The notes: a model not told the origin generated them from the sequence alone. A stretch of 61,165 bases of DNA from a virus (IMGVR_UViG_3300042478_002789:1-61165), one strand, 5' to 3'. Shown: positions 1 to 61,165, numbered from the stretch's first letter. Numbers and translations are program-made.

Positions 1-1
1 C

Positions 2-226
2 TCATGGCTTGGCCTCCAGCGCGGCGCGGGCTGCTGCCTCAATGTGCGGAGGAACATTGCTTCCACTCGCATGAGCGTGAATGTAGACCGCCAGCGGCCA
101 GCGCAGCACATCGACAAGGGCGCGGAGCCGGGTGATCTCCTGCGCCATCTTCATCTCCGCTGCGGTCGGTCCTGCGTATCGTGCACACAGGAAATCAACT
201 CCGAACTCCTTGTAGATGTCGCTCAT
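2..226 (-). CDS. Array cassette protein, 74 aa; paralog of 2699..2932
   Basis: MSDIY start, EITRLRA block, EAKP end; SD plus ATGA overlap. Confidence 0.85.
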   Translation of the reverse strand: MSDIYKEFGVDFLCARYAGPTAAEMKMAQEITRLRALVDVLRWPLAVYIHAHASGSNVPPHIEAAARAALEAKP

Positions 227-432
227 GGCTTGGCCTCCTTAATGGCCGCGAAATATGCTGGACGCCAATCACCGTCCTGCGTGTTTTCCCATTCGGCGCC
301 GCACCTTTCGCAGCGTCTGACGGATCGTCTAGACACATACGTCGTGTTGTCTGGCAGGGGCATTGGCACATCAATGGTCATCCGCCGCGCCGTCTTGTGG
401 AGGCAGGAGAGGCAGAGCAATACTTTAGTCAT
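223..432 (-). CDS. Array cassette protein, putative Zn-ribbon
   Basis: CLSC and CERC motifs; EAKP end. Confidence 0.75.
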   Translation of the reverse strand: MTKVLLCLSCLHKTARRMTIDVPMPLPDNTTYVSRRSVRRCERCGAEWENTQDGDWRPAYFAAIKEAKP

Positions 433-743
433 GGCGCAGCATCTTCAAGCGCGTAGGTCGCTGTTTTCTGATGGTTATAGCAGTTAGTGCATTGAGCCGC
501 CACGCTAGGGTGTGGCGTGGCTTGAATCCGTCGAAGCGCCCTTTCCAGCACCTCGACGCGGGCGCGCAGCCTCTCAACCTCAGCAGCGGCAATTGCAGCC
601 TCTGCTTTCTCCCGCTGGGCTTCCCACAACTTGTATTCCACGCCTTTGGGAATTCGGTGACCAAAACCTATGCTGGTCTTGTCGGGGTCTATTCCCTCTG
701 CAACGCAGAGTGCGCGTGCGACTGCTTCAACAATGTCGCTCAT
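429..743 (-). CDS. Array cassette protein
   Basis: Start reassigned to MSDIVEAVARAL after the junction SD; EVERLRARVEVLE block; ends EDAAP. Confidence 0.8.
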   Translation of the reverse strand: MSDIVEAVARALCVAEGIDPDKTSIGFGHRIPKGVEYKLWEAQREKAEAAIAAAEVERLRARVEVLERALRRIQATPHPSVAAQCTNCYNHQKTATYALEDAAP

Positions 744-985
744 GGCTTGGCCTCCTCCTTGAACGCGCATCTGTCCACGCCATCCTTTTCCCTGCGATTG
801 ATCTGCCCACCGTTAGGCACAAATGGGGTCAAAATCGGCAAGAAGAATGCTGCGGGAAGCCGCAGGTCCATCTGGTTCTCTTTGAAGTACCGGCAGAGTC
901 CATCACCACTTGGATGCAGCCTGCCGTTCTTCGTGCGCTCCCACTCCGCGTAGATGCAGCCGACGCAAGTTGATGGCTCGCTCAT
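740..985 (-). CDS. Array cassette protein, Cys-containing
   Basis: CVGC and two further Cys; EAKP end. Confidence 0.75.
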   Translation of the reverse strand: MSEPSTCVGCIYAEWERTKNGRLHPSGDGLCRYFKENQMDLRLPAAFFLPILTPFVPNGGQINRREKDGVDRCAFKEEAKP

Positions 986-1218
986 GGCTTGGCCTCCTTG
1001 TCGAGCCGAGCGATGAGCGCGTCGGCGAACATGACCGCGTCATACGCGCATCCATTGAAGGTTCCGCTTGAGCCGTCGTAGCTAGAGTTCGCGAGCTGCC
1101 CCGCGAGACACGCAGTCGCGATGCGCTCGCGTCGGTCGGCGCGGAGGCGCTCGATCTCGGCTCGCATCAACGCGATCTGCCGCCCCGCGATATCATATGC
1201 CTTCTGATTGTCGCTCAT
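982..1218 (-). CDS. Array cassette protein
   Basis: EIERLRA block followed by a RERIATACLAG...AVMFADALIARL domain typical of small phage early proteins; EAKP end. Confidence 0.8.
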   Translation of the reverse strand: MSDNQKAYDIAGRQIALMRAEIERLRADRRERIATACLAGQLANSSYDGSSGTFNGCAYDAVMFADALIARLDKEAKP

Positions 1219-1442
1219 GGCTTGGCCTCCTTCAGCTTGGCGTGTATTGGGGTTGCGTTGAGTAACCGACCGCTGGCTGGATGGATGCGGTCGTTCAACG
1301 CTCCAACGAGTTCTTCAGGTGGGCGCGGCAACCTGACATCCCTCTCCAGCACCTCGATGCGGGCGCGGAGGCGCTGGTTGTCGGCATTAAGCTCGCACAC
1401 TTCGCGAGATAGCTTCTCTATGATTTCGTAAACGTCGCTCAT
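1215..1442 (-). CDS. Array cassette protein
   Basis: MSDV start, RLRARIEVLE block, EAKP end. Confidence 0.8.
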   Translation of the reverse strand: MSDVYEIIEKLSREVCELNADNQRLRARIEVLERDVRLPRPPEELVGALNDRIHPASGRLLNATPIHAKLKEAKP

Positions 1443-1630
1443 GGCTTGGCCTCCTCTCGTGTAACGACCAGCTTGATGGTCGGGCGTTTCTCGCGATTTA
1501 GAACCGCATAGCCGGTGATGTGGCCGGTCTTCGCGCGATTGCCATGGGGAAAAACCACGCTGACGGTTGAGTCGGAGCCGTGATCCTTTATCAGAGAGGT
1601 GATCAAGGCTCGCAATTGACCAAGTTTCAC
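1439..1630 (-). CDS. Array cassette protein (GTG start)
   Basis: GTGA overlap in the junction; EAKP end. Confidence 0.75.
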   Translation of the reverse strand: MKLGQLRALITSLIKDHGSDSTVSVVFPHGNRAKTGHITGYAVLNREKRPTIKLVVTREEAKP

Positions 1631-1914
1631 GGCTTGGCCTCCTTCAGCGCGGCGCGCAGATTCTCCTCCAAATGCTCCCAGCCCTTTCCGGCTGGGTCAT
1701 AGGTATCGGCATTCTCGTAGTCGATGAGTGCCTGTGCTGCTGCGCGTATGGTCTCCAACTCCTCCACGCGGGCGCGGAGGCGGGTGATCTCGTTCAGCAG
1801 AAACGCACGGTCTTCATGCGATTTCGGGCAGATCAGCGACGGGCCGTAGCGCCACCGCTCACCTAGTTCGTGCCTCTCGCGTATCTCGGCTAGCTTCTTG
1901 TCAACGTCGCTCAT
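1627..1914 (-). CDS. Array cassette protein, Ea22/Ead-like layout
   Basis: KLAEIRERH...DRAFLLNEITRLRARVEELE...LRAALKEAKP. Confidence 0.8.
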   Translation of the reverse strand: MSDVDKKLAEIRERHELGERWRYGPSLICPKSHEDRAFLLNEITRLRARVEELETIRAAAQALIDYENADTYDPAGKGWEHLEENLRAALKEAKP

Positions 1915-2129
1915 GGCTTGACCTCCTCGTGTAAGACATACTCGTCGGAGACCCAGGCTTCCTCAACCCAAATCCCGTCGAATTTCTTGTTATACTTGTT
2001 ATCCTCAATTTCTTTTGCGCAGGACTCTGCCATCTCCCTATCAGCAAAGACCCTGTAAACATACGTCCGGGTTCTTCCTTCAGAGTAATCGCCTTCAACG
2101 AGAACTATCCAGACGACGTTCTTGGTCAT
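1911..2129 (-). CDS. Array cassette protein
   Basis: VWIVLVEG...VFADREMAE...VEE pattern; ends EVKP. Confidence 0.75.
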   Translation of the reverse strand: MTKNVVWIVLVEGDYSEGRTRTYVYRVFADREMAESCAKEIEDNKYNKKFDGIWVEEAWVSDEYVLHEEVKP

Positions 2130-2156
2130 GGCTTGGCCTCCTTCAGGGCGCGACCG

Positions 2157-2702
2157 CTACTCGCAAGAGTAGATCTGTTCCGACCGCCGCAGCGGCAGCC
2201 ATCGCGGCACGGTCGTGAATGACTTGTCGCGGAACAGGACGCGGTTGGTCGGCTGGATGGTCAGGCGACCGCCATCGGTTCGCAAGAACATGAACTCCTT
2301 TGCCTGAGCCGGCGCGTGTGTGTAGGCGTCTCCTACCGGGATGGCCGTGAACAGGTATTCCGCGCCCAGCTCGGCGTCTGCCGCGCGCACAATCGCGCCG
2401 AGCCCGTCGAGGTAGTCGTAGGTGTGCAGGGAGAACTGCGAGTTGTAGCAGTCCCATTCCTGCGCGTCCTTGATCGTCCACGGATCGGGGTCGCTGCAGA
2501 ACGCCAGCGCGTGAGGCGGAAGGTCTCGGTAGACCGCGCCGCACTCAAGCAGCACCGTGCAGCCCCATGCTCGACCAGGATGGCTGTGCAGGCCGAACCA
2601 GACCGCAGGTAACCATTCGTCGGCGCCGAAGCCGATGAAGGCACCGCAGACCGAAACGTATTGATGGCGTGGCAGGCTGCCGCTGGCGGTGAAGAGCGTC
2701 AT
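2157..2702 (-). CDS. Hypothetical phage protein, 181 aa; largest cassette
   Basis: Starts at a junction ATG; stops at TAG before the next junction. Confidence 0.8.
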   Translation of the reverse strand: MTLFTASGSLPRHQYVSVCGAFIGFGADEWLPAVWFGLHSHPGRAWGCTVLLECGAVYRDLPPHALAFCSDPDPWTIKDAQEWDCYNSQFSLHTYDYLDGLGAIVRAADAELGAEYLFTAIPVGDAYTHAPAQAKEFMFLRTDGGRLTIQPTNRVLFRDKSFTTVPRWLPLRRSEQIYSCE

Positions 2703-2932
2703 GGCTTGGCCTCCAGCGCGGCGCGGGCTGCTGCCTCAATGTGCGGCGGCACGGAATTGCCTGTCTGGTGCGCGTGGATGTAGACCGCCAGCGGCCAGCG
2801 CAGCGAATCGACGCGGGCGCGGAGGCGCTCGATCTCCTGCGCCATCTTCATCTCCGCTGCGGTGGGGCCTTCGTTCTCGCTGCAACAGTCGCGGAGAACA
2901 TCGACCCCGAACTCCTTGTAGATGTCGCTCAT
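2699..2932 (-). CDS. Array cassette protein; paralog of 2..226
   Basis: Start reassigned to MSDIYKEFG; long blocks identical to 2..226. Confidence 0.85.
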   Translation of the reverse strand: MSDIYKEFGVDVLRDCCSENEGPTAAEMKMAQEIERLRARVDSLRWPLAVYIHAHQTGNSVPPHIEAAARAALEAKP

Positions 2933-3183
2933 GGCTTGGCCTCCTTGTTCAGAACTTTGTCGATACGAGCCATCATTGTTGCTTGCTCCACGACTCCGCG
3001 CTCTGTCATTGGTCTCCAGTAGATGAGACCGTTGTGACGAGCGTCGATCAATGCATCCGTCAACTCCATGACGCGAAAGCGGAGGCAAAGAATCTCCTCC
3101 GCTGCGTCGGCAATGATGTGAGCATCCTCCTCGCTGTACATGCGGGCTGCTTGAGCGCAGTCCATTAGGGTTCTATTGCTCAT
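2929..3183 (-). CDS. Array cassette protein
   Basis: DAAEEILCLRFRVMEL (degenerate internal block); EAKP end. Confidence 0.8.
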   Translation of the reverse strand: MSNRTLMDCAQAARMYSEEDAHIIADAAEEILCLRFRVMELTDALIDARHNGLIYWRPMTERGVVEQATMMARIDKVLNKEAKP

Positions 3184-3392
3184 GGCCCATCCTCCTCGCG
3201 CATGGCCCGCACCACTTCTAGGAGATCCTCTTTGTTGGCCACGCCAAACGAGAGCATGCGCTCCAGGTCCACGGAGTGGGCAAGCATCTTCTCGTTGTGG
3301 GCGCGGATGCGGATGATATCGTCGATGGCGTCATCGATATATTCGATCCTCATCTTCCGCATGGCTTGTAGCGTTCGGAATGTTCTGGTCAT
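3180..3392 (-). CDS. Hypothetical protein (array edge)
   Basis: ATGA overlaps on both sides; ends EDGP. Confidence 0.7.
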   Translation of the reverse strand: MTRTFRTLQAMRKMRIEYIDDAIDDIIRIRAHNEKMLAHSVDLERMLSFGVANKEDLLEVVRAMREEDGP

Positions 3393-3673
3393 AGGCCGGC
3401 CTCCTCCTTGATGCGGTTGACGACTGGCCAGAGTTCCTCGTGGACGAGGTCGTGGATGATGTCCTCGGGGGACTTGTCATCGGCGAGGTGGAGTACCATC
3501 CGTTCCTGTGCCTCGTCAAGGATGGCTTCGCGCAGCGTCACCATGATGGCAAGGATCTCCTTCTTGGCTTTGGCCTGGGCCTTCTCGATGCGCTCGTAGC
3601 AATGGAGGGCGGAGCATTGCTCGCGGTGTGCGTCGGTCTCCCGACAGTACTGCTCGTAGCTATACTGGTTCAT
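3389..3673 (-). CDS. Hypothetical protein
   Basis: AAGGAGG SD before MNQYSY; ends EAGL. Confidence 0.7.
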   Translation of the reverse strand: MNQYSYEQYCRETDAHREQCSALHCYERIEKAQAKAKKEILAIMVTLREAILDEAQERMVLHLADDKSPEDIIHDLVHEELWPVVNRIKEEAGL

Positions 3674-3839
3674 GGGGTTCCTCCTTGATGAGGTGGTAAC
3701 CGGCAGCTTGGAGGGCAGCGAGAACAGCGGCGGTATCCTGCCGCCACCACCCTTTCTCCTCTTCGGAGAGAAGGTGCCATGGCTTGTGGGGGTATTCGTT
3801 GACTGCCCATATGGCAGCGATGACATCGAGGTGGTCCAT
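3660..3839 (-). CDS. Small hypothetical protein, 59 aa (not in ORF track)
   Basis: MDHLDVIAAIW...; fills the gap with overlapping start/stop. Confidence 0.55.
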   Translation of the reverse strand: MDHLDVIAAIWAVNEYPHKPWHLLSEEEKGWWRQDTAAVLAALQAAGYHLIKEEPHEPV

Positions 3840-4078
3840 CAGTCTTTCTCCCGTGAGATGGTAAGGAGTTTATCGCACTCCGCTTCTATGACACCTAGGA
3901 GGCGGGCTACGAGGCGGGCCTCACCCTCGCTGGCAAAAGAGAACTGGAGGGTGCCTTGTTGCAGGTGGCGATGCATGGTGAGAAGGTACTCCTCGACAGC
4001 GGTGGCCAAGGGCAGCGGGTCGAGGGGGGTTGTTGGCACAAGCAGCTTGTTGAAGTCAATCTTTTTCTTTCTTGCCAC
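3839..4078 (-). CDS. Hypothetical protein
   Basis: AGGAG SD, GTG start. Confidence 0.65.
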   Translation of the reverse strand: MARKKKIDFNKLLVPTTPLDPLPLATAVEEYLLTMHRHLQQGTLQFSFASEGEARLVARLLGVIEAECDKLLTISREKD

Positions 4079-4125: not shown

Positions 4126-4548
4126 TCATTTCGGAGGGCGGGGCTGCACTCCACCGAGACCACGACCATGAGTTGCTTGTGGCCCCGGAAGATGCTGCCG
4201 TCGATGTTTCGGAACGTGGTCTTCATAGCGTAGGTTCCTCATGAGGTTGGCGAGGGCGGCCTCCGGGTCAGAGGGGGGTCGGAGGTAGCGGATGGCGTAG
4301 ACGGCTTCGTTGTTGCGTAGGGATACCGCTTCCAACTGGCGCTTGGCAACCATGTTCTGGATGCGGATGGCAACAGCGGGCCGGGCAATCCCCGTGAAGG
4401 TTGCTAGCTCGGTGGCAGTGAAGTCACTCCCCAGGGTCTGGATTGCCGCTACCACCCTGCGGGTCAAGCGCCCGCCATTGGGGGCACCAAGGAGCGGCTT
4501 CGCAGTATTCGGCGCAACGGACGTTGCTACCTTCACGCTTCTGGACAT
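4126..4548 (-). CDS. Winged-HTH DNA-binding protein (true start probably downstream, near 4467)
   Basis: FTATELATFTGIARPAVAIRIQNMV HTH pattern. Confidence 0.55.
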   Translation of the reverse strand: MSRSVKVATSVAPNTAKPLLGAPNGGRLTRRVVAAIQTLGSDFTATELATFTGIARPAVAIRIQNMVAKRQLEAVSLRNNEAVYAIRYLRPPSDPEAALANLMRNLRYEDHVPKHRRQHLPGPQATHGRGLGGVQPRPPK

Positions 4549-5296
4549 AGAGCTTTCCCTTGTCGTTCTGGTAGGAGATGAAAGCGGTGGCCGTCTCCTC
4601 GGAGTTGAAGAGTTTCACGGCGGACTTGCGCCCCTCCTTCATGACGGCGAAGGTCGTTGGCTTGTACCAGCGGTCCTCGGCGCTGCACTCGGGGTTGCTC
4701 TGGTGGTAGAGGATGCGCTGGGAGATGCGCTCCTCGGCTACGTCGTGGGTCCACACCGGGATGTCCACTACCTGCATGGGCAGGTTGGGGTAGGTAACGT
4801 CACGCACCGAGAGGAACTTGGCCCAATCGCGCAGCATGACGATGACCTGTATGGCCTTGACCTCCATGCCGTGGAGGCGCAGCAACCAAGCGTAGGTATT
4901 GAGTTGGTTCTCCCAATCGGGCTCCACCAGTTGCTTCTGGAAGCGAGAGACAGAGGTGACCTTGTAGTCCTGGAGGATCTGCTGGTCGACCAGCAGGCGG
5001 TCGAACTTGCCGCTGATGGTGACACCGTGGCGAGAGGCGAAGAGCCGCTTCTCCACGATGGCTTCCGTGTCGGCCTCCTCCAGCAGGCGGTGGAAGGCTG
5101 AACCCAAGAGGTTCATGAGGTAGTCGGAGGCGTCCCGCTGGATGTCCCCCGAGTGGGCCTTGGCTAGGCGCACCATCTGCGGGGGTTTCCAGAGGGAGGT
5201 CACCGAGATGTCGGCGTCCCCGATGTCATAGTCGTCCTTGGCGAGGGCGGATACGACGGGCTGGGGCAGGTTGAACTTGTTAGAAAGCGGGTTCAT
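4424..5296 (-). CDS. PD-(D/E)xK exonuclease, Cas4/RecB-like
   Basis: GSAFH, SGKFD, DYK and QLNTY motifs; C-terminal Cys cluster RCAEYC-WC; SD AAGGAG before MNPL. Confidence 0.85.
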   Translation of the reverse strand: MNPLSNKFNLPQPVVSALAKDDYDIGDADISVTSLWKPPQMVRLAKAHSGDIQRDASDYLMNLLGSAFHRLLEEADTEAIVEKRLFASRHGVTISGKFDRLLVDQQILQDYKVTSVSRFQKQLVEPDWENQLNTYAWLLRLHGMEVKAIQVIVMLRDWAKFLSVRDVTYPNLPMQVVDIPVWTHDVAEERISQRILYHQSNPECSAEDRWYKPTTFAVMKEGRKSAVKLFNSEETATAFISYQNDKGKLYVQKREGSNVRCAEYCEAAPWCPQWRALDPQGGSGNPDPGE

Positions 5297-5435
5297 GCAG
5301 GTCTCCTTCATCATGGCGCTTCTTGAATTCGGCGGCGATGCGGTAGTGGCGGAAGGCTTCGTCGTACTTGCCTTCCCATTCGAGGTCAACCGCTTTCTGC
5401 TGGTGCTTCTGGTACAGGTGGTACGTCGTTTCCAC
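5280..5435 (-). CDS. Small hypothetical protein, 51 aa
   Basis: GTG-start ORF ...DLEWEGKYDEA...HEPAF. Confidence 0.45.
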   Translation of the reverse strand: METTYHLYQKHQQKAVDLEWEGKYDEAFRHYRIAAEFKKRHDEGDLHEPAF

Positions 5436-6192: not shown

Positions 6193-6930
6193 TCAGAAGG
6201 GGATGGAGTCGTCGTACACTCCGGTGTCGAGGGGCTCGGGGTTGGCGACCTCCTTGACCACGGTGAGGCGGCAGACCCGGACCTTGGTGTTCTGGTAGTC
6301 GATGGGGACGGAGACCACGTCGGCGGGGTCCACCTGACAGAGCATGGTGCGCTGCCCACCGAAGCTTCGGAGGTACTCGAAAGAGCAGACGTGGAGGCCG
6401 GTGGAGCAGGTGCTTTCGGGGTCGTCGTCCACCTCGGAGCGGGGCATGGTGTGGGTGGTGCCCACCTTGTAGCAGTTGGTGCGGCTGGTGTGCACATCGT
6501 AGTAGGTGTCGGTGACCTTCTTGTAGAAGAGGAGGTCACCCTCGGGGGTGATGGCGATGTTGTTGGTGGCGACGAAGCGCCAGAGCTGGTTGCGGCTGCG
6601 CATCGAGGGGTTACGCAGCACCTTGTCGAGGAAGGACATGAGGGGGCCGATGTCGAAGCCCTTCTCCTTCATCGAGAGGATGTGCGGGACCATGACGTGG
6701 TCCACCTCGGTGCCGTTGCGCAGCAGCCGGTAATCCTCGATGACGAGGGAGCCATCGGCATACTCCTCGATGGTAGCCCGGGGGGTGATGTGCTCGATGG
6801 CAGCGTCCCACTCGCCCTGCCGGATGCACTGGAGGGCATCAGCGAAGCCCTGCATATCGGAGGTGGCGGTGTAGGTCTGGCCGTCACGGATGATGGTGAC
6901 GGTATTGGTGGTGATGAGATGGGGATACAT
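6193..6930 (-). CDS. rIIB: RIIB-like protein
   Basis: CSTGLHV, DPADVVSVPIDY and KVRVC motifs; adjacent to rIIA. Confidence 0.85.
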   Translation of the reverse strand: MYPHLITTNTVTIIRDGQTYTATSDMQGFADALQCIRQGEWDAAIEHITPRATIEEYADGSLVIEDYRLLRNGTEVDHVMVPHILSMKEKGFDIGPLMSFLDKVLRNPSMRSRNQLWRFVATNNIAITPEGDLLFYKKVTDTYYDVHTSRTNCYKVGTTHTMPRSEVDDDPESTCSTGLHVCSFEYLRSFGGQRTMLCQVDPADVVSVPIDYQNTKVRVCRLTVVKEVANPEPLDTGVYDDSIPF

Positions 6931-6941
6931 GACAGATCCTT

Positions 6942-8774
6942 TCACTTGATGAGGGAGATGATGCGGGTGAGAGCGGCAGCCTCTGACTCAGCCCACGACT
7001 TGGTATCCAGTAGGGTGAAGAGGGGGTTAGCCCGGATAACCTTTAGGTACTCCTTCTTGTAGTCGATGTTGCAGGAAGCCCAGCCAGAGCAGAAAGCCTG
7101 CACGTCGTAGTAATGGACAGGGTGGAAGTTGGCGGGCTTGGGTGGAGGGGGAGGGAGCAACCCGCTGGCAGCGAGGGCTACATACAGGGGCGTATCCCAA
7201 CCGTCAACCTGTTGATAGCTGTTGTAGAGAGCGAGGGCTGGAGCCTCGGTGTCGAGGAAGACCTGGGCGGCAGCCTCCCACTCGGCGGCGGCATCCCTGA
7301 GGGTGTTGTACTTGCCCTTGAAGTCAGGGGGGATGAGAGCGATCTGGCCTCCGATGCGCCGGCACATCGCCATGTAGATGGCACGGGAGAGCCTGACACC
7401 GCGCCAGTAGGTAGCCTTGTCCACCACCGTCACCGGGAGGTAGTGGGTGCAGGGGGTGGGGGATACCACAAGGGTGCCCCGGTCGTTGAGGATGCGGTGG
7501 GCGATGGGGCGGGAGGCCTTGCGGATGGGGGCTGCGGTGGGGATGGAAGAGAGGGGGATGATGGGCAGGCCCATGTCATCGAAGGGTGTCCTGTCCTCCA
7601 CCACGTACACGTCGGTGCCGGGGCCGTAGTTGGGCTGGTTACGGAGGGTGTTCTCGATGCGCTCCTGCATCTTGCGGTTGTCGTCTTCGAGGTAGGCCAC
7701 GTCCTCCCAGTAGAAGTAGAGGTTGGACCCGGAGGCAAAAGTGCCATTCCACCTCTTGCGCTTCCGGTCGGAGGGATTGAACTTCCGGTAGCTGGCACCG
7801 TGGATCTCCACGTGGGTGTTACCCACCCTGTAGGTCCTACCGCCGGGGGCATTGAAGATGTAGGACTTGTCGAAGATGGAACCCTTGAGGATCTGCCAGA
7901 TCTGGGGGACGGTGGTGCACTTGGCAACCAAGTCATCCTGGAGGCTGAGATAGTCCTGACGGTGCAGGTCGATGGCATTCTGGATGCGCTGGATGGTGGC
8001 GGGGGAGTAGACGATCTCCTCGCGAGAAGCGGTCACTTCGATGGTGCCGATGGGGAACTTGAGGACGAAGGGCGGGACCCGCTGGAAATGGGCGGTGTTG
8101 AGGGGGTAGGCCACCGGACCTACGAGGATGGAGGGTTTGCCCCCGGAGATGACGAGGTACTGGGGGTTCTCGTGGATGATGGTGGGACCGTCGTAGGTGC
8201 AGCCGGTGATGATGGGGCGGGGCTCGAAGTACTGGATCTGGGAGAGGGCTTCGACCCACTCGGGGGAGGGCTTGGCTGGCACGATGATCTCCAACCCGGT
8301 GTCGTTGGTGGGCTCGGAGGATACCTCGTGGAGGGCAGGCATCCCGTCGGCACCGATGCTGGCCATGTAGGTGGTCTTGGTGCCAGCGTGGGAGGAGACG
8401 ATGGTGTAGCTGTTGGCGATGGCGAAGGGGCTCTTGGCACCGAGGCCGAAGCCGCCGATCTGGCTGTTGTCACGGCGCTTGGTGGATTCACCGAAGCGGG
8501 TGAAGACCTCCACCATCGAGGTGCGAGAGAGGCCGGGACCCTTGTCACGGATGCGGAAGGAGGGGTCGAGTGCGGTGGGCACCCGGATCTCCATGGGCTG
8601 GGTGGGTGCAGCGTCGAGGGCATTGGATGCCAGTTCGCGGACCACCGAGGAGATGGGGTTGGAGTAGAGGCGAGAGGTCAGAGCCTTGACCATGATGCCG
8701 TTGGTCTGGATCTGGAAGTCGCAGAGTTTGGTGAGACCGGAAGACTCGTGGGTCTGGGAGATGTCGATAAGCAT
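6942..8774 (-). CDS. rIIA: RIIA-like protein (GHKL ATPase N-domain)
   Basis: LYSNPI..VRELASNALDA, IRDKGPGLS, STKR..IGGFGLGAKSPFA. Confidence 0.9.
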   Translation of the reverse strand: MLIDISQTHESSGLTKLCDFQIQTNGIMVKALTSRLYSNPISSVVRELASNALDAAPTQPMEIRVPTALDPSFRIRDKGPGLSRTSMVEVFTRFGESTKRRDNSQIGGFGLGAKSPFAIANSYTIVSSHAGTKTTYMASIGADGMPALHEVSSEPTNDTGLEIIVPAKPSPEWVEALSQIQYFEPRPIITGCTYDGPTIIHENPQYLVISGGKPSILVGPVAYPLNTAHFQRVPPFVLKFPIGTIEVTASREEIVYSPATIQRIQNAIDLHRQDYLSLQDDLVAKCTTVPQIWQILKGSIFDKSYIFNAPGGRTYRVGNTHVEIHGASYRKFNPSDRKRKRWNGTFASGSNLYFYWEDVAYLEDDNRKMQERIENTLRNQPNYGPGTDVYVVEDRTPFDDMGLPIIPLSSIPTAAPIRKASRPIAHRILNDRGTLVVSPTPCTHYLPVTVVDKATYWRGVRLSRAIYMAMCRRIGGQIALIPPDFKGKYNTLRDAAAEWEAAAQVFLDTEAPALALYNSYQQVDGWDTPLYVALAASGLLPPPPPKPANFHPVHYYDVQAFCSGWASCNIDYKKEYLKVIRANPLFTLLDTKSWAESEAAALTRIISLIK

Positions 8775-11888: not shown

Positions 11889-12140
11889 TTAGTCAGCCTT
11901 GGTGAAAGTGTCGATGAAGCCGAAACCGTAGGACCTCATGGACAAATCCCGATGTATCGAGGAGTATTGGCGGGAATGTTCTTTTGCCCATTTGGCAACG
12001 TATTCGAGGTAGATTTGGGGGATCGGGACAGGAAGTAATCCTTCCCATTCGGCAGCACGAATTTGCCCCGCTTCATAGGAAGCAAGAGCAATATCGGCTT
12101 CATTGGGTGACATCATGTCGGATGAAGCATTTAACCTCAT
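11889..12140 (-). CDS. Hypothetical protein
   Basis: AAGGAG SD; ATGA overlap. Confidence 0.55.
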   Translation of the reverse strand: MRLNASSDMMSPNEADIALASYEAGQIRAAEWEGLLPVPIPQIYLEYVAKWAKEHSRQYSSIHRDLSMRSYGFGFIDTFTKAD

Positions 12141-12367
12141 TTGGACATCTCCTTTAGTTCCTTCTTGATACGCTTGGCGGTGTCACCACGCCACGAGGAG
12201 GCATTGGCGAGGAAGTACAGGACGACACTCTTGGCATCATCGAAGTAATACTTGTCGTCGATGGTGCGGAGAGCCGCCATCGCCTCAATGTAGGGCTTTG
12301 CGGCATAATTCACATTCTTCCAGTCCCGCCGGATGTCGGCGGCAATCTCATAAAGGGGGCGAGACAT
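12137..12367 (-). CDS. Conserved small phage protein; first gene of the leftward operon
   Basis: MSRPLYEIAADIRRDW...YFLANASSWRG; GGAG SD. Confidence 0.8.
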   Translation of the reverse strand: MSRPLYEIAADIRRDWKNVNYAAKPYIEAMAALRTIDDKYYFDDAKSVVLYFLANASSWRGDTAKRIKKELKEMSK

Positions 12368-12410
12368 TATGTTTCTCCCAAAAGGCGGCGGAATTGCCGC
12401 GGCGAGGTCT

Positions 12411-12439
12411 ACGGTGGCACAGCCGTTTGGCGGTGTCAA
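12411..12439 (-). promoter_or_regulatory. Sigma70-type promoter for the leftward early operon
   Basis: TTGACA-17 nt-CACCGT with an upstream A-tract. Confidence 0.55.
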
Positions 12440-12503
12440 CAAGTTTTTTTGCCGTTGCGGTTCAAGGGGTTAGGCGGCAGTTTGGAACGGTTCCAAAGTG
12501 CGG

Positions 12504-12686
12504 GGTGAAGGCGGCCATATGATGTATTCACCCTGTAAGTGCTTGATTTCATTGAGTGGGTGAAGGCTGTGAAGGTAGTGAAGGGTGATATTACCCTTTC
12601 CATGGGGAAGGATGGGGATAGATGGGGGAAATGTTGCTAGTGAACCTTCACCCTCTTCGGGAATGTAATGAAATCAATGGGTTAGC
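12504..12686. other. Origin-like element, copy 1 (GTGAAGG iterons plus IHF-consensus sites)
   Basis: Four GTGAAGG and one inverted CCTTCAC; WATCAANNNNTTR matches at 12536 (reverse) and 12672. Confidence 0.6.
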
Positions 12687-12989
12687 TGTTTGGGGTGGGT
12701 GGGAATGGGGGTTGGGGGTTGCTAGCCGGGAATTGTGAGGGATTTCAATGGGTTAGATGTTGCTAATTGTTGCTAGATTGTGGGGATAATTGTAATTTTA
12801 TTATAATGGGGCGGGGAATATAATGGGAGGATTATGCTGGGGATATTGAAATTTTCTTGCGAGATATGTAATAAAAGATTCACGAAAGATTCACGCCATT
12901 GAAATTCGGGCTGTGCTGTAATGGCTTCCGTCGACTTTTATTCCAGTCGGAATATAAGGGATGACATTATAAGAGAAGGAAAACAGATT

Positions 12990-13280
12990 ATGTCCAAGAT
13001 GCAAATCGTGATCGACCTCGATAATCTGAATATTTCGGCCTGCGGCAATTATTATAATATGCCGATCAGCATCGCCGAGGATAAGATAAGGCTTATCGGC
13101 ATTAATAAGGATGCCTCGGCCTTCATTAACAAGGGGCGGATCATTATCCGCAAGGGGGCCAAGGCCGCCGCCGCGAAGGCCGATAATAACACGGCGCGGA
13201 TCGATAATATCGAAAAGGCGCTAGGCTCGATTATCGAATTGCTGGCTTCCCAAAATAAGGCCAAGGCCAAGGCCAAGTAA
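12990..13280 (+). CDS. Isolated basic protein in an AT-rich island
   Basis: AAGGA SD; followed by a terminator; atypical codon usage. Confidence 0.7.
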   Translation: MSKMQIVIDLDNLNISACGNYYNMPISIAEDKIRLIGINKDASAFINKGRIIIRKGAKAAAAKADNNTARIDNIEKALGSIIELLASQNKAKAKAK

Positions 13281-13304
13281 CATAACATAATCAATTAAAT
13301 AATT

Positions 13305-13340
13305 GGGGTCGGGATATAATGTCCCGGCCCCTTTTATTTT
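13305..13340 (+). terminator. Intrinsic terminator
   Basis: GGGGTCGGGA-loop-TCCCGGCCCC followed by TTTTATTTT. Confidence 0.8.
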
Positions 13341-13347
13341 GTCCCGA

Positions 13348-13433
13348 ATATATAATATCAGATAATATAATATAATATAATATAATCACATAATATAATA
13401 TCATATAATATTATGGTATTATATTATGTGATT
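13348..13433. repeat. (ATAAT)n tract and 17-bp perfect inverted repeat
   Basis: aatcacataatataata (13384) / tattatattatgtgatt (ends 13433). Confidence 0.85.
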
Positions 13434-13640
13434 TTTTTTGTGCTTTTTTTTTTGTGCCTAATTTTGGCGGGGGGTGGGGGAAAAACAGGCCGGCAGGCAG
13501 TTGGGGGTTGTGGGGGCCCCCATGCCAGAAATTTTTCAAAATTTGGACTTTTGGGGGTGGGTACTCTATAATGCCGTTTGGGGCACCCGTCGTTGGGTAA
13601 AACACCCCCTTCTCATTTCTCTTACCTCCCCTAGGTCCCC

Positions 13641-14066
13641 ATGGATATTCTGCAAACCGTACTCCATAGCACCCTCGCCCTCTCCCTCAAGACCCAGAAT
13701 TTCCATTGGAATGTCGTTGGTCCCCACTTTGGGCCCCTCCACGACCTCTTTGGCAAGCAGTACGAGGAACTCCAGGACGCAGCAGACCTCATAGCGGAGC
13801 GCATTCGGGCCCTTGATGACTTCGCACACCCCCACAACAGCAACGAGGGGGCCGACGCCGTAGACCCAATCCCCTCCAAGCCCCTCCACTACCGCAAAAT
13901 GGTCCAAACTTTGGCGGTGGAAAACGAGAAGCTGGGTCTCCTGTGCGCCAAGGGGGTTGCTCTCACGGCGGAAGAGGACCCCGCGACCTCCAATCTCCTG
14001 GCGGAGAGGCAGATGGCCCACCAAAAGGCCGCTTGGATGCTCCGCTCGCACCTCCTCGGCTCATAA
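13641..14066 (+). CDS. dps: Dps family ferritin-like protein
   Basis: HWNVVGPHF..LH..F..QYEE...D.IAERIRAL; KAAWML. Confidence 0.92.
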   Translation: MDILQTVLHSTLALSLKTQNFHWNVVGPHFGPLHDLFGKQYEELQDAADLIAERIRALDDFAHPHNSNEGADAVDPIPSKPLHYRKMVQTLAVENEKLGLLCAKGVALTAEEDPATSNLLAERQMAHQKAAWMLRSHLLGS

Positions 14067-54274: not shown

Positions 54275-54398
54275 AGACGGTACCTTCCTTTTCGACCCAG
54301 ACCTTGACTTCGTGGCCGCGCTTCCTCCAGTACGCCCGGATGGAAGAGGCTAGCCGCTCACTGTGGAATTTGCTGCCGAGGTAGTCAGGCCAGTCCAT
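54210..54398 (-). CDS. Hypothetical protein
   Basis: LA..I..YW..RG..V.VWVE..IRS. Confidence 0.6.
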   Translation of the reverse strand: MDWPDYLGSKFHSERLASSIRAYWRKRGHEVKVWVEKEGTVYVIRSTLQFTFPFAQPARKHR

Positions 54399-56655
54399 CC
54401 GGGTTGTCCTTCTTGCGCTTGCCCCAGTTCATCCCTGTTTGGGATTCCCACGGGATCGTCATCTCCCGAATGTTACCCCATATGTCCTTTACCTGCAAGG
54501 GAAATGTCAGCGCCTCCACGATGCGGGGCACCAGGGTGTCCTTGAGGTGCAGGGGGATCTGGCCGAAGGCAGCATCGTGGATGTTGTTGAGGATCTGCAC
54601 CTCCGGGAGGGTTTGGCGGATGGCGAGGAGGCCCCGCGCGGTCATGTCCCCCACGGTACTCTGGGGCACGTAGGCGATGGCCGCCCTTATGGTGGTGTCG
54701 TCGCGGGGGTTCTCCCAGAAGTTGCGCCGCCGACCAAAGGGGGTGACTAGGTGGCGCTCCGTCTGCACCTGCTGGGCCACCCAGACCTGCCACTTCTTGA
54801 GGTTGGGGAAGGTGCGGAAGTACTTGGATTGGAACTCCTCGATGAGCTTGGTCTCCACCTTGAGGACGCGCGCGATGGTGTAGGCGCTGCCCCCGTAATT
54901 GCTGTTGCCAGTGACCATGATCTTGTTGTTGCGCCGCACCAGGAAGTAGGAGGTGGGCACGGTGAGGCAGTGCACTGGCGTCCCCTCAGTGGGGATCTTG
55001 GTGACCTTCAGGTGGGACGCGCGACTCAAGGTGCGCCGGTTGAGATTGGCCTTGTGGACGATGCTGCCAAAGCCACTGAGGGTGGTTCCCTGGTAGGTGG
55101 TTCCCTTCCCGCACAGGGCGGCGATGGTCTGGTACCAATCGATGGTTTCCTTGCGGACGCTATGGAAGCTGACATGGGTCTTGCCCACGTGGGAGTCCCA
55201 GTGGCGGGTCTCATCGAGCCATGCCTCAAGGGCTGCACGGGACCACCCCAAGAGGTAGGGGCCGGGCAGCTTGAAGCCATCGGGGTTGAATACCTTGCGG
55301 GAGATGGTGCAGGACTTTGCGCCCTTGCTATCCGTCACCCAGTTTTGGGGGCCGAAGAGGAAGTCAACCCGCTTGATCTTGCGCGGCTTCTTGAGGTGGA
55401 AGCGGAGGTTGCCCGAGGTGCTGCTGCCATCGGCTTGCAGGGCGGCAATGCGCCTTGCCTCAAGGGGGGTGACGGTCTGCTGGCCCCCGACATAGTGGCC
55501 GACCACGGGCAGGCGAGCAGAGGAAGGGAGGGCTTCGGCTGGTGCCACCTTGAACTTGTTGTCGGTGGTGTAGGGCATCCGGTGATCGTGGGTGGCAAGG
55601 AGGGAATAGGCCGTGCCCTCGAACTGATGGAGGGTTCCCTCGTAGAGGAAGCTGGTCACCCCCAAGGTGGGCTGGAAGGAGATGGATCCATCGGTGTCCC
55701 AGCAGGCGACGCGCATCCCCACATTGATGGTGTTGATGGGTTGCCACCCAGAGGGGGTCAGGACCTCGTGGTCGGAGGTGAGGCACCCATGGGCCGCCCT
55801 CTTGGCAATGTCGCGGTAGGACATCTCGCGGTAATATTTGCGGTCGGCCAACTCACGGCGGGGCTCGAAGCCGAAGACCATGGCGGCCACCATCGTGTGT
55901 ACGTCCCCCGACTCGATGGCCTTGATGTAGTTCTCGTCCCCCGCCACGTAACCGACGACGCGAGCCTCTGCCCCCTGCTGGTCGCAGTTGAAGAAGATGT
56001 GGCCGGGGTCGGGGATGAAGATGCGGCGGATGTAGTCGTCGATGTTCTGGAGGTTGGAGCCCATCCCAAAGGGATGCTCGCTGCTGGACCAGCGCCCGGT
56101 GTCGGTGCCGGCGATGTTGAAGTTTGCATGCCAGCGCCCCGAGGGAGAGAGCTTCTTGGTGAGGGTCTCCACCGTCTTTTCGAGGTCGCGCATCTTCAGG
56201 AGGTGGGAGGTGACGGGCATGGCCCGCGAGTACTCCCGGTGCAGGCGCTCCAAGGCGTCGCGGTCGGTGGATACTTTCTTCTCGCCCTTCTTGGAAACGA
56301 TAACCTGGGGGAGGAAGAGGCGGGTATAGAGGAGATCTTGTAGCTGCAGGTAGCTGCGGGGATTGAAGGTCTTGCCCCACACCCCGGTGCAGAGGGCGTC
56401 GAAGTTCTGCTCGATGCGATCAAGGCGACCCTGGAGGTGGGCCACCATGCCGTCGCGCTTCTCGGTGTCGACGAGGATGCCCCGCTCCATCATTTCGAGG
56501 ACGAGGGGGAGGAGGGAGCGCTCGAACTCGTAGGTGGGGGAGTGGGGCAGGGCGGCATCGACCTCCATGGTCATTAGGCCGTCGAGCCCATTATAGACCA
56601 TTTGCTGGAGGGCAAGGTCCATTGAGGGCAGGTTGTCCGTCTCGATGATACGCAA
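54385..56655 (-). CDS. polA: Family A DNA polymerase, polymerase subunit (intein-containing)
   Basis: TGRWSS, NLQNI, DQQGAEAR (motif A), KRAAHG/SNYG (motif B), IHDA (motif C). Confidence 0.93.
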   Translation of the reverse strand: MRIIETDNLPSMDLALQQMVYNGLDGLMTMEVDAALPHSPTYEFERSLLPLVLEMMERGILVDTEKRDGMVAHLQGRLDRIEQNFDALCTGVWGKTFNPRSYLQLQDLLYTRLFLPQVIVSKKGEKKVSTDRDALERLHREYSRAMPVTSHLLKMRDLEKTVETLTKKLSPSGRWHANFNIAGTDTGRWSSSEHPFGMGSNLQNIDDYIRRIFIPDPGHIFFNCDQQGAEARVVGYVAGDENYIKAIESGDVHTMVAAMVFGFEPRRELADRKYYREMSYRDIAKRAAHGCLTSDHEVLTPSGWQPINTINVGMRVACWDTDGSISFQPTLGVTSFLYEGTLHQFEGTAYSLLATHDHRMPYTTDNKFKVAPAEALPSSARLPVVGHYVGGQQTVTPLEARRIAALQADGSSTSGNLRFHLKKPRKIKRVDFLFGPQNWVTDSKGAKSCTISRKVFNPDGFKLPGPYLLGWSRAALEAWLDETRHWDSHVGKTHVSFHSVRKETIDWYQTIAALCGKGTTYQGTTLSGFGSIVHKANLNRRTLSRASHLKVTKIPTEGTPVHCLTVPTSYFLVRRNNKIMVTGNSNYGGSAYTIARVLKVETKLIEEFQSKYFRTFPNLKKWQVWVAQQVQTERHLVTPFGRRRNFWENPRDDTTIRAAIAYVPQSTVGDMTARGLLAIRQTLPEVQILNNIHDAAFGQIPLHLKDTLVPRIVEALTFPLQVKDIWGNIREMTIPWESQTGMNWGKRKKDNPDGLA
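54904..55785 (-). mobile_element. Intein (294 aa) in PolA motif B, with a degenerate LAGLIDADG-type endonuclease
   Basis: N-terminal CLTSDHEVLT..GW; block B ATHDHR; AALQADG; C-terminal VHCLTVP...VTGN; +1 Ser. Confidence 0.92.
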
Positions 56656-56815
56656 GGTCGAACTCCAATGCGTGTGAGAGTTGGATGAGGAGGGCGAGGG
56701 CGTGGCTGCGCGCAAGGGGAATGCGGGTGAGGTTGCCGTCCACCACCACGTTGGCCGTCATGCCCTCCGAGGTGGAGGTGACGAAGAGGAGGGACGACGG
56801 CTTGTACTCAATCAT
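56591..56815 (-). CDS. Hypothetical protein between the polymerase halves
   Basis: Overlaps both neighbours; operon packing. Confidence 0.5.
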   Translation of the reverse strand: MIEYKPSSLLFVTSTSEGMTANVVVDGNLTRIPLARSHALALLIQLSHALEFDLAYHRDGQPALNGPCPPANGL

Positions 56816-58098: not shown

Positions 58099-58103
58099 GG
58101 TAT

Positions 58104-58747: not shown

Positions 58748-59500
58748 TTACGATTCGATCTGCTTGAAGATGGCACCCAGATCGAATGGTGCCTCTGCCT
58801 GCACCCGGTGGGGTGCGCTGCATTTCAGGTAACCCATATCACGAGTGGTCTGCGTGTGCAAGACCGGCTTTCCATCTTTTCGCGAGGCGAGCCACACGTT
58901 GTTCATGTAGCGCGCGACGACGTTGGGAAGCTGCTGCCCCAAGAAGGAGGGGAAGGCGCGCATGAGACCGCCGGTCTTCTTGTTCTCGATGAGGCGGATG
59001 TGGGCGATGAGGATGAGGTGGAAGTTGTAGCGGTCGCTGGTGAGGCGCGCAACCTGGTTCTCGAAGCGCTTGTTCATCACGCCCCACATCGACTGGTCGA
59101 AGCCCGCCTTGTCGTCGGAGATGCCGTTCTCCTTGAGGACCTGCGACATGCAGGTATCGTTCCAGAAGGTGGCGCTGTCGACGACGAGCACGGTGTTGCT
59201 ATCCCACGTGGTGAGATCACCGAGGTCCTCCTCAGGAAGCTTCCACTGGGTGGTAAGGGCAATGGACTTCTTCCACGAGTCGGGGTCCTTGGCGGGGATG
59301 CTGTAGTAGGAGACGTTGCTACCCTTGCCCTCCTGCAGGTAGGCGTTGAGGATGGCGAGGTTGTTGTCGAGGTCGAGGATGCGGACCTTGTAGTCCTTGT
59401 TGGCCAAGGTGGCCATGAGTCCGGTCTTCCCTGCCCCGGGGTCACCTAGGAGGAGAAGCTTCACTCGCTTCTGGTTTGGGTGGTTGAGGAAGGATGGCAT
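58748..59500 (-). CDS. AAA ATPase, Sak4-like annealase
   Basis: GDPGAGKT, LDLD, VVDSAT, ILIAH. Confidence 0.8.
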   Translation of the reverse strand: MPSFLNHPNQKRVKLLLLGDPGAGKTGLMATLANKDYKVRILDLDNNLAILNAYLQEGKGSNVSYYSIPAKDPDSWKKSIALTTQWKLPEEDLGDLTTWDSNTVLVVDSATFWNDTCMSQVLKENGISDDKAGFDQSMWGVMNKRFENQVARLTSDRYNFHLILIAHIRLIENKKTGGLMRAFPSFLGQQLPNVVARYMNNVWLASRKDGKPVLHTQTTRDMGYLKCSAPHRVQAEAPFDLGAIFKQIES

Positions 59501-59670
59501 TTCTGGCTCCAATCTATTTCATAATCGTAGGCCCAAGAGGACGACCCATCCGGGAGGATGATGTCGTAGATGCTACCTAGCAGGTCGTAGCCGTGGGGGT
59601 CAACAACTTTTATGGGGGTCCCGGCGGGGTGCGGGCCGAGGGGGGTCTTCAGTTTGTAATCTGCTGCCAT
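59461..59670 (-). CDS. Hypothetical protein
   Basis: ORF fills the operon gap. Confidence 0.45.
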   Translation of the reverse strand: MAADYKLKTPLGPHPAGTPIKVVDPHGYDLLGSIYDIILPDGSSSWAYDYEIDWSQKCHPSSTTQTRSE

Positions 59671-60404: not shown

Positions 60405-60688
60405 GTCTCATTCCTTTCTATGCGGAGAGTGTATCCTGCTACCAGCAGGACAGAGTGGAAGTCAAGGAGGTTGGGTGTGCGATCCCCGCGTAGCCACTTG
60501 CGGAGGGTTTGACGGTGTATACCGGCGCGCTTGCAGGTGTCAAGCAGGAAGCCGGCGTCGTCGGCAAGGATGGCACCGAGTTGCTGGATGAGGGGATCAA
60601 CGTCGGGGAAGACTCCCTTGTAGTTGGCCTTGGCTGCGGCGAACATGGCTTTCTCTTGGCGCACCCGCAGGGGCACCTGGTGTGTCAT
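60401..60688 (-). CDS. XRE/Cro-type HTH protein
   Basis: CKRAGIHRQTLRKW..G..TP.L......GY. Confidence 0.75.
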   Translation of the reverse strand: MTHQVPLRVRQEKAMFAAAKANYKGVFPDVDPLIQQLGAILADDAGFLLDTCKRAGIHRQTLRKWLRGDRTPNLLDFHSVLLVAGYTLRIERNET

Positions 60689-60957
60689 GTTACGTCCTTT
60701 CCTGCGAGGAGGTCGCGAGCCAGGGAGGGTGCATCCCAGAAGCCGTCACCCTCCACGATCTTCTGGAGACCGGCGCGGTAGCGGGCGATCTCATCTCGGA
60801 GGGCGTCGCCTTCAGCCAGTTCGCGATTTAGTCTTTCCAACTCCTCCACGCGGGCGCGGAGGCTATCAGTTAGAATTGTCGCAAGTCGAGCGCATTCCAA
60901 ATGCTCCTCTTTAAGCCTTCTATTCTCGATTCGCAGCTTGCTCACGATGTCGCTCAT
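60685..60957 (-). CDS. Last array cassette protein
   Basis: MSDIVSKLR after the junction; LRARVEELE block. Confidence 0.8.
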   Translation of the reverse strand: MSDIVSKLRIENRRLKEEHLECARLATILTDSLRARVEELERLNRELAEGDALRDEIARYRAGLQKIVEGDGFWDAPSLARDLLAGKDVT

Positions 60958-60969
60958 GGCTTGGCCTCC
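60953..60969 (-). repeat. Cassette-junction repeat copy
   Basis: ctcatggcttggcctcc, exact copy. Confidence 0.97.
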
Positions 60970-61165
60970 TTCAGGGCAGCGAGCAGGGCTTTGAATTTCT
61001 CTCCCCAATACCAACTGCGCTCGTAAGCGAAAAAATCGTCTGCTGCTGCGCGGATGCGCTCCAGCACCTCCACGCGGGCGCGGAGGCGGGTGATCTCCCT
61101 CGCTGCGTCCAATTGAATTTCTGGTGAATCATAATAAGAGTACATCGTGTTTTCTGTTAAGAGAC
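60954..61165 (-). CDS. Array cassette protein; starts across the window junction (ATG at 5..3)
   Basis: MSLLTENTMYSYY...EITRLRARVEVLE...ALKEAKP if the ends overlap by 1 nt. Confidence 0.8.
   Translation of the reverse strand, partial: LLTENTMYSYYDSPEIQLDAAREITRLRARVEVLERIRAAADDFFAYERSWYWGEKFKALLAALKEAKP

Follow-up and report, generated by a model that had tools for sequence, protein, structure and literature searches.

The use of short conserved repeats as sites of homologous exchange is already known from phages, as is the shuffling of phage modules, and these precedents serve as analogies for the locus described here. In T4-type phages, according to the passages cited, short repeats across the hyperplastic region of small ORFan genes (the PeSL cassettes) are sites of homologous exchange (PMC2839356, PMC4122927), and this exchange shuffles, deletes and inserts modules, also between nearby copies in one genome (PMC2839356). 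The gp38 adhesin of T-even phages is described, in the part of its report used here, as carrying conserved in-frame glycine-rich motifs that separate hypervariable segments, and crosses give exchanges (PMC3157838). Ea22 of lambda and its mosaic counterparts in Stx phages begin, in the sections drawn on, with a short variable N-terminal part, continue with a central coiled coil and end in one of several interchangeable, unrelated C-terminal domains, DUF551 among them (PMC10834534). Finally, the annealing proteins Sak4, Sak, Red-beta and Erf are said in the cited passages to recombine short, diverged sequences and so to give rise to phage mosaics (PMC5499656, PMC8093625, PMC5928155). Here I report on a short coding block (EITRLRARVE and variants) that recurs in an array of tiny genes in a virus record of 61,165 nucleotides (nt), IMGVR_UViG_3300042478_002789:1-61165, called the window below. 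I give a probability of roughly 0.85 to the reading that this block is an in-frame, helix-coding linker for homologous recombination among otherwise unrelated tiny early genes of a lake-water phage lineage.

The window is an entire IMG/VR virus record, classed as linear, with a CheckV completeness estimate of 100%. One minus-strand array of about 15 tiny genes spans both of its ends (3392..2 and 61165..60685), and both ends (1-7, 61146-61165) lie inside the array. Adjacent genes, or cassettes, are joined by a near-invariant junction, AAGGAGGCCAAGCCATGAGCGAC, at every gene boundary from 3185 to 2 and again at 60959. It reads ...KEAKP-stop overlapping ATG-AGC-GAC (MSD...), with a ribosome-binding site and an ATGA stop/start overlap. 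The preliminary description of this DNA had proposed a general cassette plan of MSD, a first variable part, the block, a second variable part and (K)EAKP. This plan fits the nine block-bearing cassettes (Table 1) and does not extend to the others, which lack the block (223..432, 740..985, 1439..1630, 1911..2129, 2157..2702, 3180..3392).

Two variations on the array deserve mention in their own right. The gene at 2157-2702 (minus strand, 181 amino acids (aa)) matches phrog_3704, 'ferredoxin' (E 8.9e-13); it starts at a junction, has no KEAKP end and is followed by a short non-coding gap (2130-2156). In a related contig, at L043:105-635 (minus strand), an altered junction, KEAQAMSERW, replaces KEAKP-stop/MSERW. 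A block cassette thereby continues in frame into its neighbour, and this second cassette is a DUF551 match (E 8.8e-05; 23.7 bits, cut-off 22).

At all nine places listed earlier the block is present, within a few bases, on the minus (coding) strand; a tenth copy at 60763-60792 brings the total to ten in-register copies in nine genes, with 19-30 of 30 nt identical to the copy at 1762-1791. The 30-mer first quoted occurs exactly twice (1762-1791 and 61068-61097) and in none of 100 shuffles. A 12-nt core, MGSCTSCGCGCC, is found 8 times, only inside the array and only on the minus strand, compared with a mean of 0.27 and a maximum of 2 in shuffles. A six-frame scan for the peptide RLR[AF][RLD][VIR] gave 7 matches, each in an array gene; the other ~57 kb of the record had none. 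Identity can run past the core: 60836-60863 and 1754-1781 are 100% identical over 28 nt, and 61041-61097 and 1735-1791 are 91% identical over 57 nt.

The exact junction 23-mer was found in 19 IMG/VR stretches. A 21-nt block pattern was found in 24, four of them already known from the junction search, and in 18 of the 20 new ones (not L026 and L036) the block lies in a small open reading frame (ORF) that ends with the same type of junction. L026 is a 64-kb viral contig that has no KEAKP junction and encodes small MSD-starting proteins with EIERLRARIEELE (minus strand; ORFs at ~6190 and ~6829 of the oriented locus), and so the block may reach beyond the junction-bearing lineage.

The strongest evidence for the linker reading is that the two halves of these proteins assort independently. 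Fifty-five unique block-bearing proteins from the record and 39 related loci were split at the block and the halves clustered by blastp (E<=1e-3, coverage of at least half of the shorter sequence, single linkage), which gave 28 N clusters, 25 C clusters and 46 combinations. Eight of the 12 multi-member N clusters have at least two C partners and 9 of the 10 multi-member C clusters at least two N partners; for N00 and N02 with C00 and C01, all four combinations are present. A protein search with 1627..1914, in which the block was not used as a query, retrieved 77 homologues, classed by BLASTP as 34 that share the C-half only, 23 the N-half only, 16 that align end to end and 4 'other'. At least 57 of the 77 thus have only one half in common with the query, and several of the end-to-end homologues (P0005, P0025, P0038, P0040) are still chimeric, with a diverged or different C-half. 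C-half-only alignments begin at residues 33-45 of the query and N-half-only alignments stop at residues 51-62. When the sets were merged into 131 unique proteins and clustered with coverage of at least 0.6 of the longer sequence (single linkage), 36 N clusters and 35 C clusters formed 84 combinations. The N-half of 1627..1914 is paired with 21 C clusters, its C-half type with 24 N clusters, and 28 pairs of N clusters have at least two C clusters in common, with all four 'gametes' present. The fixed pairing of N-half and C-half that would have spoken against shuffling was not found; instead, as had been claimed, the flanking halves are unrelated, and on both sides the same half occurs with many unrelated partners.

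The block-less cassette 740..985 served as a control. Twelve of its 14 homologues cover at least 91% of it, one of the other two is collinear but diverged, and the last is an ORF called from an internal Met. No half-gene chimera was seen among the 14.

A chimeric partner exists for all seven canonical block genes of the record. Through the N-half and as far as +13 nt of the block, the DNA of 2..226 and of L019:2923-3153 is 100% identical; it is unrelated beyond, where L019 carries a C-half of the type of 60954..61145. The opposite chimera, with the N-half of 60954..61165 and the C-half of 2..226, is present in L025; the full form of 60954..61165, whose start is cut off in the record, begins with (M/V)KDIVERLLTENTM in L025, L015 and P0072. 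The C-half of 429..743 is 99% identical to L011:3088-3294 and L029:45-302 from +6 nt, with unrelated N-halves, and the N-half in L011:3088-3294 is of the type of 982..1218. The N-half of 1215..1442 is 94% identical to L010:2805-3005 up to +30 nt, and there the C-halves are unrelated. The RERIATACLAG-type C-half of 982..1218 is paired with five N clusters in the 55-protein set. The last array gene, 60685..60957, has two block copies, and the N-half of 1627..1914 is followed in P0007 by the part after the first of them and in P0015 and P0017 by the part after the second; more generally, the RLRAGLQ/RYRAGLQ form of the block links many N-halves to a KIVEGDGFWD C-half. Even the C-half of 2929..3183, which follows a degenerate block in the record, stands after a canonical block in L043, P0033 and P0052.

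Where the shared half ends was located with a single change point fitted to ungapped DNA between -60 and +75, counted from the base at which RLRA begins. Pairs were counted as clean if the shared side was at least 0.85 identical and the other side at most 0.40; the remaining pairs, too diverged or with indels, were left out. Among same-N pairs 18 of 69 were clean and every break fell from +12 to +35 nt; among same-C pairs 23 of 69 were clean and every break fell from -22 to +6 nt. All clean chimeric pairs therefore change between -22 and +35 nt, which bears out the prediction that break points would lie in the block. Some exchanges look recent, such as that between L019:2923-3153 and the 2..226 type (identity 1.00 up to +13). 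One trio of recombinants stands out: L011:3088-3294 matches 429..743 on the right (0.99 from +6) and L028 and L009 on the left (0.98 up to +30/+35), which places the crossover within about 30 nt over which these sequences all resemble one another.

Since the choice of pairs biases this fit, an all-versus-all blastn of arrays against arrays was run, independent of clustering, and the ends of matches (at least 70 nt, at least 85% identity, not touching a sequence end) were recorded. There were 430 distinct ends. The block zone (-25 to +40), 7.8% of the sequence, contains 120 of them, and the zone from -30 to +15 around a junction ATG, 8.7%, contains 136; the other 174 fall in the remaining 83.5%. 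The ends of homology tracts are thus enriched 3.6-fold at blocks and equally strongly at junctions, with left ends concentrated from -30 to +9 and right ends from +10 to +39. Logan contigs (k=31) from four lake-water runs also stop at blocks and junctions, with breaks at 1762/1790, 518-547 and 2917-2934 among them. In X3 and X24 there are contigs with a further combination, in which an N-half whose last residues are ATTVAWMRA precedes the block and C-half of 2699..2935; in a contig of X1 the C-half of 429..743 comes after this N-half instead. Most of the Logan joints listed are short-sided, or are other cassettes placed by junction and block, and I use only the break positions and the combinations just given, as weak evidence that alternative flanks coexist in these lake samples.

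The block is also conserved at positions that do not affect the protein. Codons were compared in 31 unique proteins from the record and from junction-found loci only, since retrieval by the block would be circular here. For arginine, CGC is used at the first position of the core in 21 of 31, at the second in 30 of 31 and at the third in 17 of 18, whereas its share is 0.42 in 26 long ORFs of the window and 0.51 in cassettes outside the block; leucine is CTC in 24 of 31 (shares of 0.38 and 0.29) and alanine GCC in 30 of 31 (0.51 and 0.31). In 12 instances of which no two have a common N or C cluster, the counts are 9/12, 8/12, 12/12, 11/12 and 5/6 (for first R, L, second R, A and third R). From -12 to +11 the third positions have a mean pairwise identity of 0.47-1.00, which drops to about 0.2-0.3 further out. 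The core codons are therefore far more uniform than codon bias predicts, as had been suspected. The universal DNA core measures about 12-24 nt, and sub-families have longer tracts, up to 30-57 nt.

As for the protein, an AlphaFold2 model of 1627..1914 (20-row alignment; mean predicted local distance difference test score, pLDDT, 80.5) has one helix at residues 30-68 that includes the block at residues 42-51, with a mean pLDDT of 93 for residues 41-50 and 91 for 51-60. I43, L46, V50 and L53 show the 3-4-3 spacing of a coiled coil, which is visible in the sequence itself. With the block midway in one long helix and I, L, V and L in a/d-type positions, new joints would probably stay foldable. The preliminary description had also suggested a shared coiled coil that might allow hetero-oligomers. 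A complex prediction for 1627..1914 and 429..743, which have unrelated halves and a common block, gave a median score of 0.32 against a mark of 0.34, with controls at 0.00, an outcome that speaks neither for binding nor against it. PHROGs matched nothing in nine block proteins except for a weak hit of phrog_28300 to the C-half of 982..1218 (E 0.0013), and DUF1192 (PF06698) fell short of its 25.5-bit cut-off on the block of both 982..1218 (15.1 bits) and L019:2923-3153 (18.0 bits), while among the 77 homologues P0076 carries a precomputed PF06698 label and two bear a source's DUF1192 name.

On this evidence the proposal of an in-frame recombination point that gives rise to chimeric proteins is supported from several sides: by assortment, break points, synonymous uniformity and the block-less control. 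Homologous recombination inside the block would join any N-half to any C-half without a scar and with the frame kept, and the outcome would be a large combinatorial set of chimeric proteins of ~60-130 aa. Relatives that infect the same cell could exchange halves in this way, and so could tandem cassettes within a single genome, where the intervening DNA would be lost or gained. Exchange between tandem copies would fit L011, which combines an N-half of the 982..1218 type with the C-half of 429..743, genes that lie one cassette apart in the record. I infer that general recombination is the agent, aided by the phage's own Sak4-like protein, of a RecA-core-only ATPase family, and its exonuclease (Table 1). 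From the position of the array I would guess that the cassette proteins are host take-over or anti-defence adaptors made early in infection.

Several points weigh against this reading. The universal core of 12-24 nt is at or below the length usually thought enough for efficient homologous exchange, and selection for foldable, in-frame products could concentrate the surviving joints at the block even if the exchanges were untargeted. The part of the Sak4-like protein in these exchanges is likewise something that I infer. The pairs used for the change-point fit were picked by splitting at the block, which biases that test; single linkage at the chosen cut-off merges some N types, so that the cluster counts are approximate; and since the instances share descent, the P values of the end-point and codon tests are only nominal. 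The relatives all come from metagenome assemblies, in which mis-joins at repeats are not fully excluded without long reads, and the Logan joints come from contigs rather than reads and mostly have short sides (<30 letters).

The explanation that survives best beside the recombination linker is that the block is kept solely as a protein motif, either a dimerising coiled coil or a site for a common partner, that its likeness in DNA is a by-product, and that rare illegitimate joins were followed by selection. The heptad-like spacing, the confident long helix and the high conservation of the block as protein in all 77 homologues are what one would expect of such a motif, and the sub-threshold Pfam matches to bZIP_2, DivIC, ZapB and DUF1192 (E 0.002-0.03) fall on the block. 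It does not account well for core synonymous positions that are nearly fixed (30/31, 30/31, 24/31), beyond codon bias, or for recent chimeras that are scarless and 97-100% identical in DNA up to the block; exchange through DNA identity fits these better. I hold this explanation, in its exclusive form, to be possible but not probable, and a protein motif and a recombination linker are not mutually exclusive.

Very little probability attaches to the suggestion that the chimeras are artefacts of short-read assemblers jumping at the common block or junction. The Logan contigs do break at blocks and junctions, which means that the assembly graph branches there, and the record itself ends within the array. 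However, the same chimeras recur in separate records (one is identical in L019, L020 and L022, another in L010 and L018), and such clusters are found on 9-37 contigs (P0064, P0006 and P0023 on 18, 37 and 24, respectively). Contig L015 is 100% identical to both record ends over 693 and 2166 nt, most shared tracts are shorter than 45 nt, and the block-less control family has no chimeras despite the same junctions on both sides.

It is just as improbable that a dedicated diversifying system, site-specific or templated, acts on the block, whether integron-like or retroelement-based. Two tiers of very uniform short sequences, junction and block, in a tandem array do recall such systems, but neither a tyrosine integrase (PF00589) nor a serine recombinase/resolvase nor a reverse transcriptase (PF00078) turned up in a six-frame scan of the record, inverted repeats within 60 nt are absent from the array, and the break points are spread over about 55 nt rather than lying at one phosphodiester bond. 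A site-specific or retroelement mechanism is therefore unlikely, with the reservation that at least 564 nt of the genome lie outside the record and that enzymes of other kinds are conceivable. A role for the block as RNA or as a hairpin was dropped after scans that were empty or at chance: no tRNA genes or Rfam families were found, promoter-like sites in 1-4000 numbered 0 (1.3 in shuffles), terminator-like sites there were at chance (5 against 2.8 +/- 1.8, none at a block), and the inverted-repeat scan is that given above. Finally, one old protein family whose ends diverged around a conserved core without recombination, which the common MSD start, block and (K)EAKP tail might suggest, can practically be set aside, as N-halves that are 88-100% identical in DNA stand before unrelated C-halves, and C-halves in the same way behind unrelated N-halves, and two N types and two C types exist in all four combinations.

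A bolder extension of the linker reading, which I consider doubtful, is that the array is a standing shuffling device with two tiers, in which the junction moves whole cassettes and the block moves half cassettes, with the Sak4-like protein and the exonuclease acting at high frequency, so as to maintain a library of bivalent coiled-coil adaptors against host defences. Each adaptor would then combine one target-binding head with one effector tail, and excised circles carrying 'C-half + N-half' pieces might occur. If this were true, a lake phage population would keep a combinatorial library of adaptors that keeps pace with the defences of its hosts.

The remainder of the genome gives some context. 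On the minus strand, the record's last 693 nt and first 2166 nt both recur with 100% identity in contig L015, and between them (L015:694-1257 in the orientation of that comparison) the contig has a 564-nt bridge with two further cassettes and the missing start of gene 60954..61165. Because L015 bridges both ends, the genome is probably circular or circularly permuted, and by the same comparison the record appears to be not quite complete despite the estimate of 100%, with at least 564 nt missing. Once the record is closed into a circle, the Sak4-like gene and the exonuclease gene flank the array. Other proteins encoded include a DNA polymerase that seems to be in two pieces, rIIA- and rIIB-like proteins and a dCMP deaminase. 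The polymerase ORFs (57127-58203 and 54385-56715, minus strand) match phrog_17 profile positions 564-767 and then 805-1073, and the second has a PhoH-like match mid-protein (residues 306-606); judging from these matches the polymerase may be split, or may bear an intein or insert. Genes for the rIIA-like (610 aa) and rIIB-like (250 aa) proteins lie at 6193-8774 (minus strand), just upstream of the early region, and at 12001-14000 the G+C content falls to 0.488 from ~0.60 elsewhere.

Contigs of 24 lake-water metagenome runs hold 68-94% of the words of the array region. A megablast of the array against cultured phages gave no match, and the cultured relatives of the exonuclease gene are distant (all below 60% identity, the best listed at 34%). 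Searched against genomes of 185,579 species, the junction 23-mer had one match, in a 40,011-nt contig (L044) of a metagenome-assembled genome labelled Rubrivivax sp., at the same position as in the viral contig L014, which is equally long. The binning of L044 is at most a weak hint of a Burkholderiales host.

Table 1. Cassette genes, block copies and putative recombination genes in the window. For blocks, the fraction gives nt identical to the copy at 1762-1791.
Feature	Coordinates	Strand	Size or identity	Remarks
Cassette gene	2..226	-	74 aa	N-half MSDIYKEF type, C-half PLAVYIHAH type; identical protein in L015
Cassette gene	429..743	-	104 aa	
Cassette gene	982..1218	-	78 aa	C-half RERIATACLAG type
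Cassette gene	1215..1442	-	75 aa	
Cassette gene	1627..1914	-	95 aa	query of database test
Cassette gene	2699..2935	-	77 aa	paralogue of 2..226
Cassette gene	2929..3183	-	84 aa	carries degenerate block
Cassette gene	60685..60957	-	90 aa	two block copies; last array gene
Cassette gene	60954..61165	-		5' end cut by record end
Block EITRLRALVD	110..139	-	25/30	gene 2..226
Block EVERLRARVE	552..581	-	21/30	gene 429..743
Block EIERLRADRR	1129..1158	-	19/30	gene 982..1218
Block DNQRLRARIE	1353..1382	-	23/30	gene 1215..1442
Block EITRLRARVE	1762..1791	-		gene 1627..1914; reference copy, in predicted helix 30-68
Block EIERLRARVD	2807..2836	-	25/30	gene 2699..2935
Degenerate block EILCLRFRVM	3067..3096	-	19/30	gene 2929..3183
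Second, variant block EIARYRAGLQ	60763..60792	-	22/30	gene 60685..60957
Block LTDSLRARVE	60844..60873	-		gene 60685..60957; overlaps 28-nt identity to 1754-1781
Block EITRLRARVE	61068..61097	-	30/30	gene 60954..61165, starting beyond record end
PD-(D/E)XK / Cas4-like exonuclease gene	4424..5389	-		phrog_2139, E 7e-44; candidate partner
Sak4-like gene (single-stranded DNA-annealing protein)	58748..59512	-		phrog_124, E 1.2e-21; candidate recombinase

Accounts of phage mosaicism usually deal with whole genes or modules that are joined at gene boundaries. In this array half of an 80-residue protein is the unit of exchange, and the joint is a stretch of ~12-45 nt that doubles as the code for a helix tolerant of any neighbour; the combinations seen are many (84 among 131 proteins). 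The locus thus offers a natural case, open to test, for the minimum length of homology that drives exchange in the wild, for the origin of new small phage proteins by recombination rather than point mutation, and for the idea that early 'ORFan' genes are two-part adaptors. There is also a practical warning, in that pipelines for annotation and clustering will mis-group such proteins and that short-read assemblies break, or may mis-join, at such blocks.

How, then, does this locus compare with the known systems? The resemblance to Ea22/Ead proteins that the preliminary description had pointed out holds for the architecture (a long helix with interchangeable C-halves) and not for the sequence. 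Ead_Ea22 (PF13935, 27-bit cut-off) had no match at E<=1 in 10 proteins of the window, none at E<=0.1 in 10 proteins of relatives and none at E<=1 in six frames of the record, a scan in which control genomes did match, and the ESM Atlas returned unnamed clusters at 0.91 and, as a lead only, at 0.82 a cluster with 44% Ead_Ea22 members. As with Ea22, these are proteins of an early, non-essential region; the same design of N-terminal part, coiled coil and C-terminal domain is present here, the array lies beside recombination genes as in the exo-xis region, and in L043 a DUF551-type cassette is fused after a block cassette. In contrast to Ea22, the proteins are 2-3 times smaller, the common helical part is only ~10-13 residues and not half of the protein, each genome has many paralogous copies, and exchange affects the N side as well as the C side. 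Ea22 is therefore best regarded as an analogue in design and not as a relative by sequence.

With the PeSL cassettes the locus has in common a repeated short sequence as a site of module exchange, as the enrichment of tract ends at blocks and junctions indicates. However, PeSLs are intergenic and consist of a promoter and a stem-loop terminator, whereas the block is coding, in frame and mid-gene, had no promoter-like or terminator-like site at it in the scan of 1-4000, and shuffles half genes rather than whole genes. As in gp38, a conserved in-frame motif within a gene bounds interchangeable segments. Yet gp38 is one essential structural gene with a glycine-rich core and allelic exchange between phages, and the array is made of non-structural genes in many paralogous copies, with a helical motif that has unrelated partners on either side. 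Like phages with relaxed homologous recombination, this one encodes a Sak4-like protein, which might act on the block, although the published mosaics mostly concern whole genes or modules. Integrons and attC sites differ in having a PF00589 integrase and inverted repeats, both absent here, and diversity-generating retroelements in having a PF00078 reverse transcriptase with template and variable repeats and in making adenine-directed point changes where the array exchanges whole unrelated halves. In polymorphic toxins, pre-toxin motifs such as VENN in CdiA mark swaps of C-terminal domains by homologous recombination; these are large secreted bacterial toxins with immunity genes, and only their C side varies, whereas the cassettes show no sign of a toxin or immunity function.

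No description of a system of this kind was found in the main articles of open-access full texts. What sets this locus apart from the T-even systems is that the site of exchange is coding and mid-gene, that it serves many paralogous tiny genes, that both sides of it are swapped, and that a second universal site lies at the gene boundaries.

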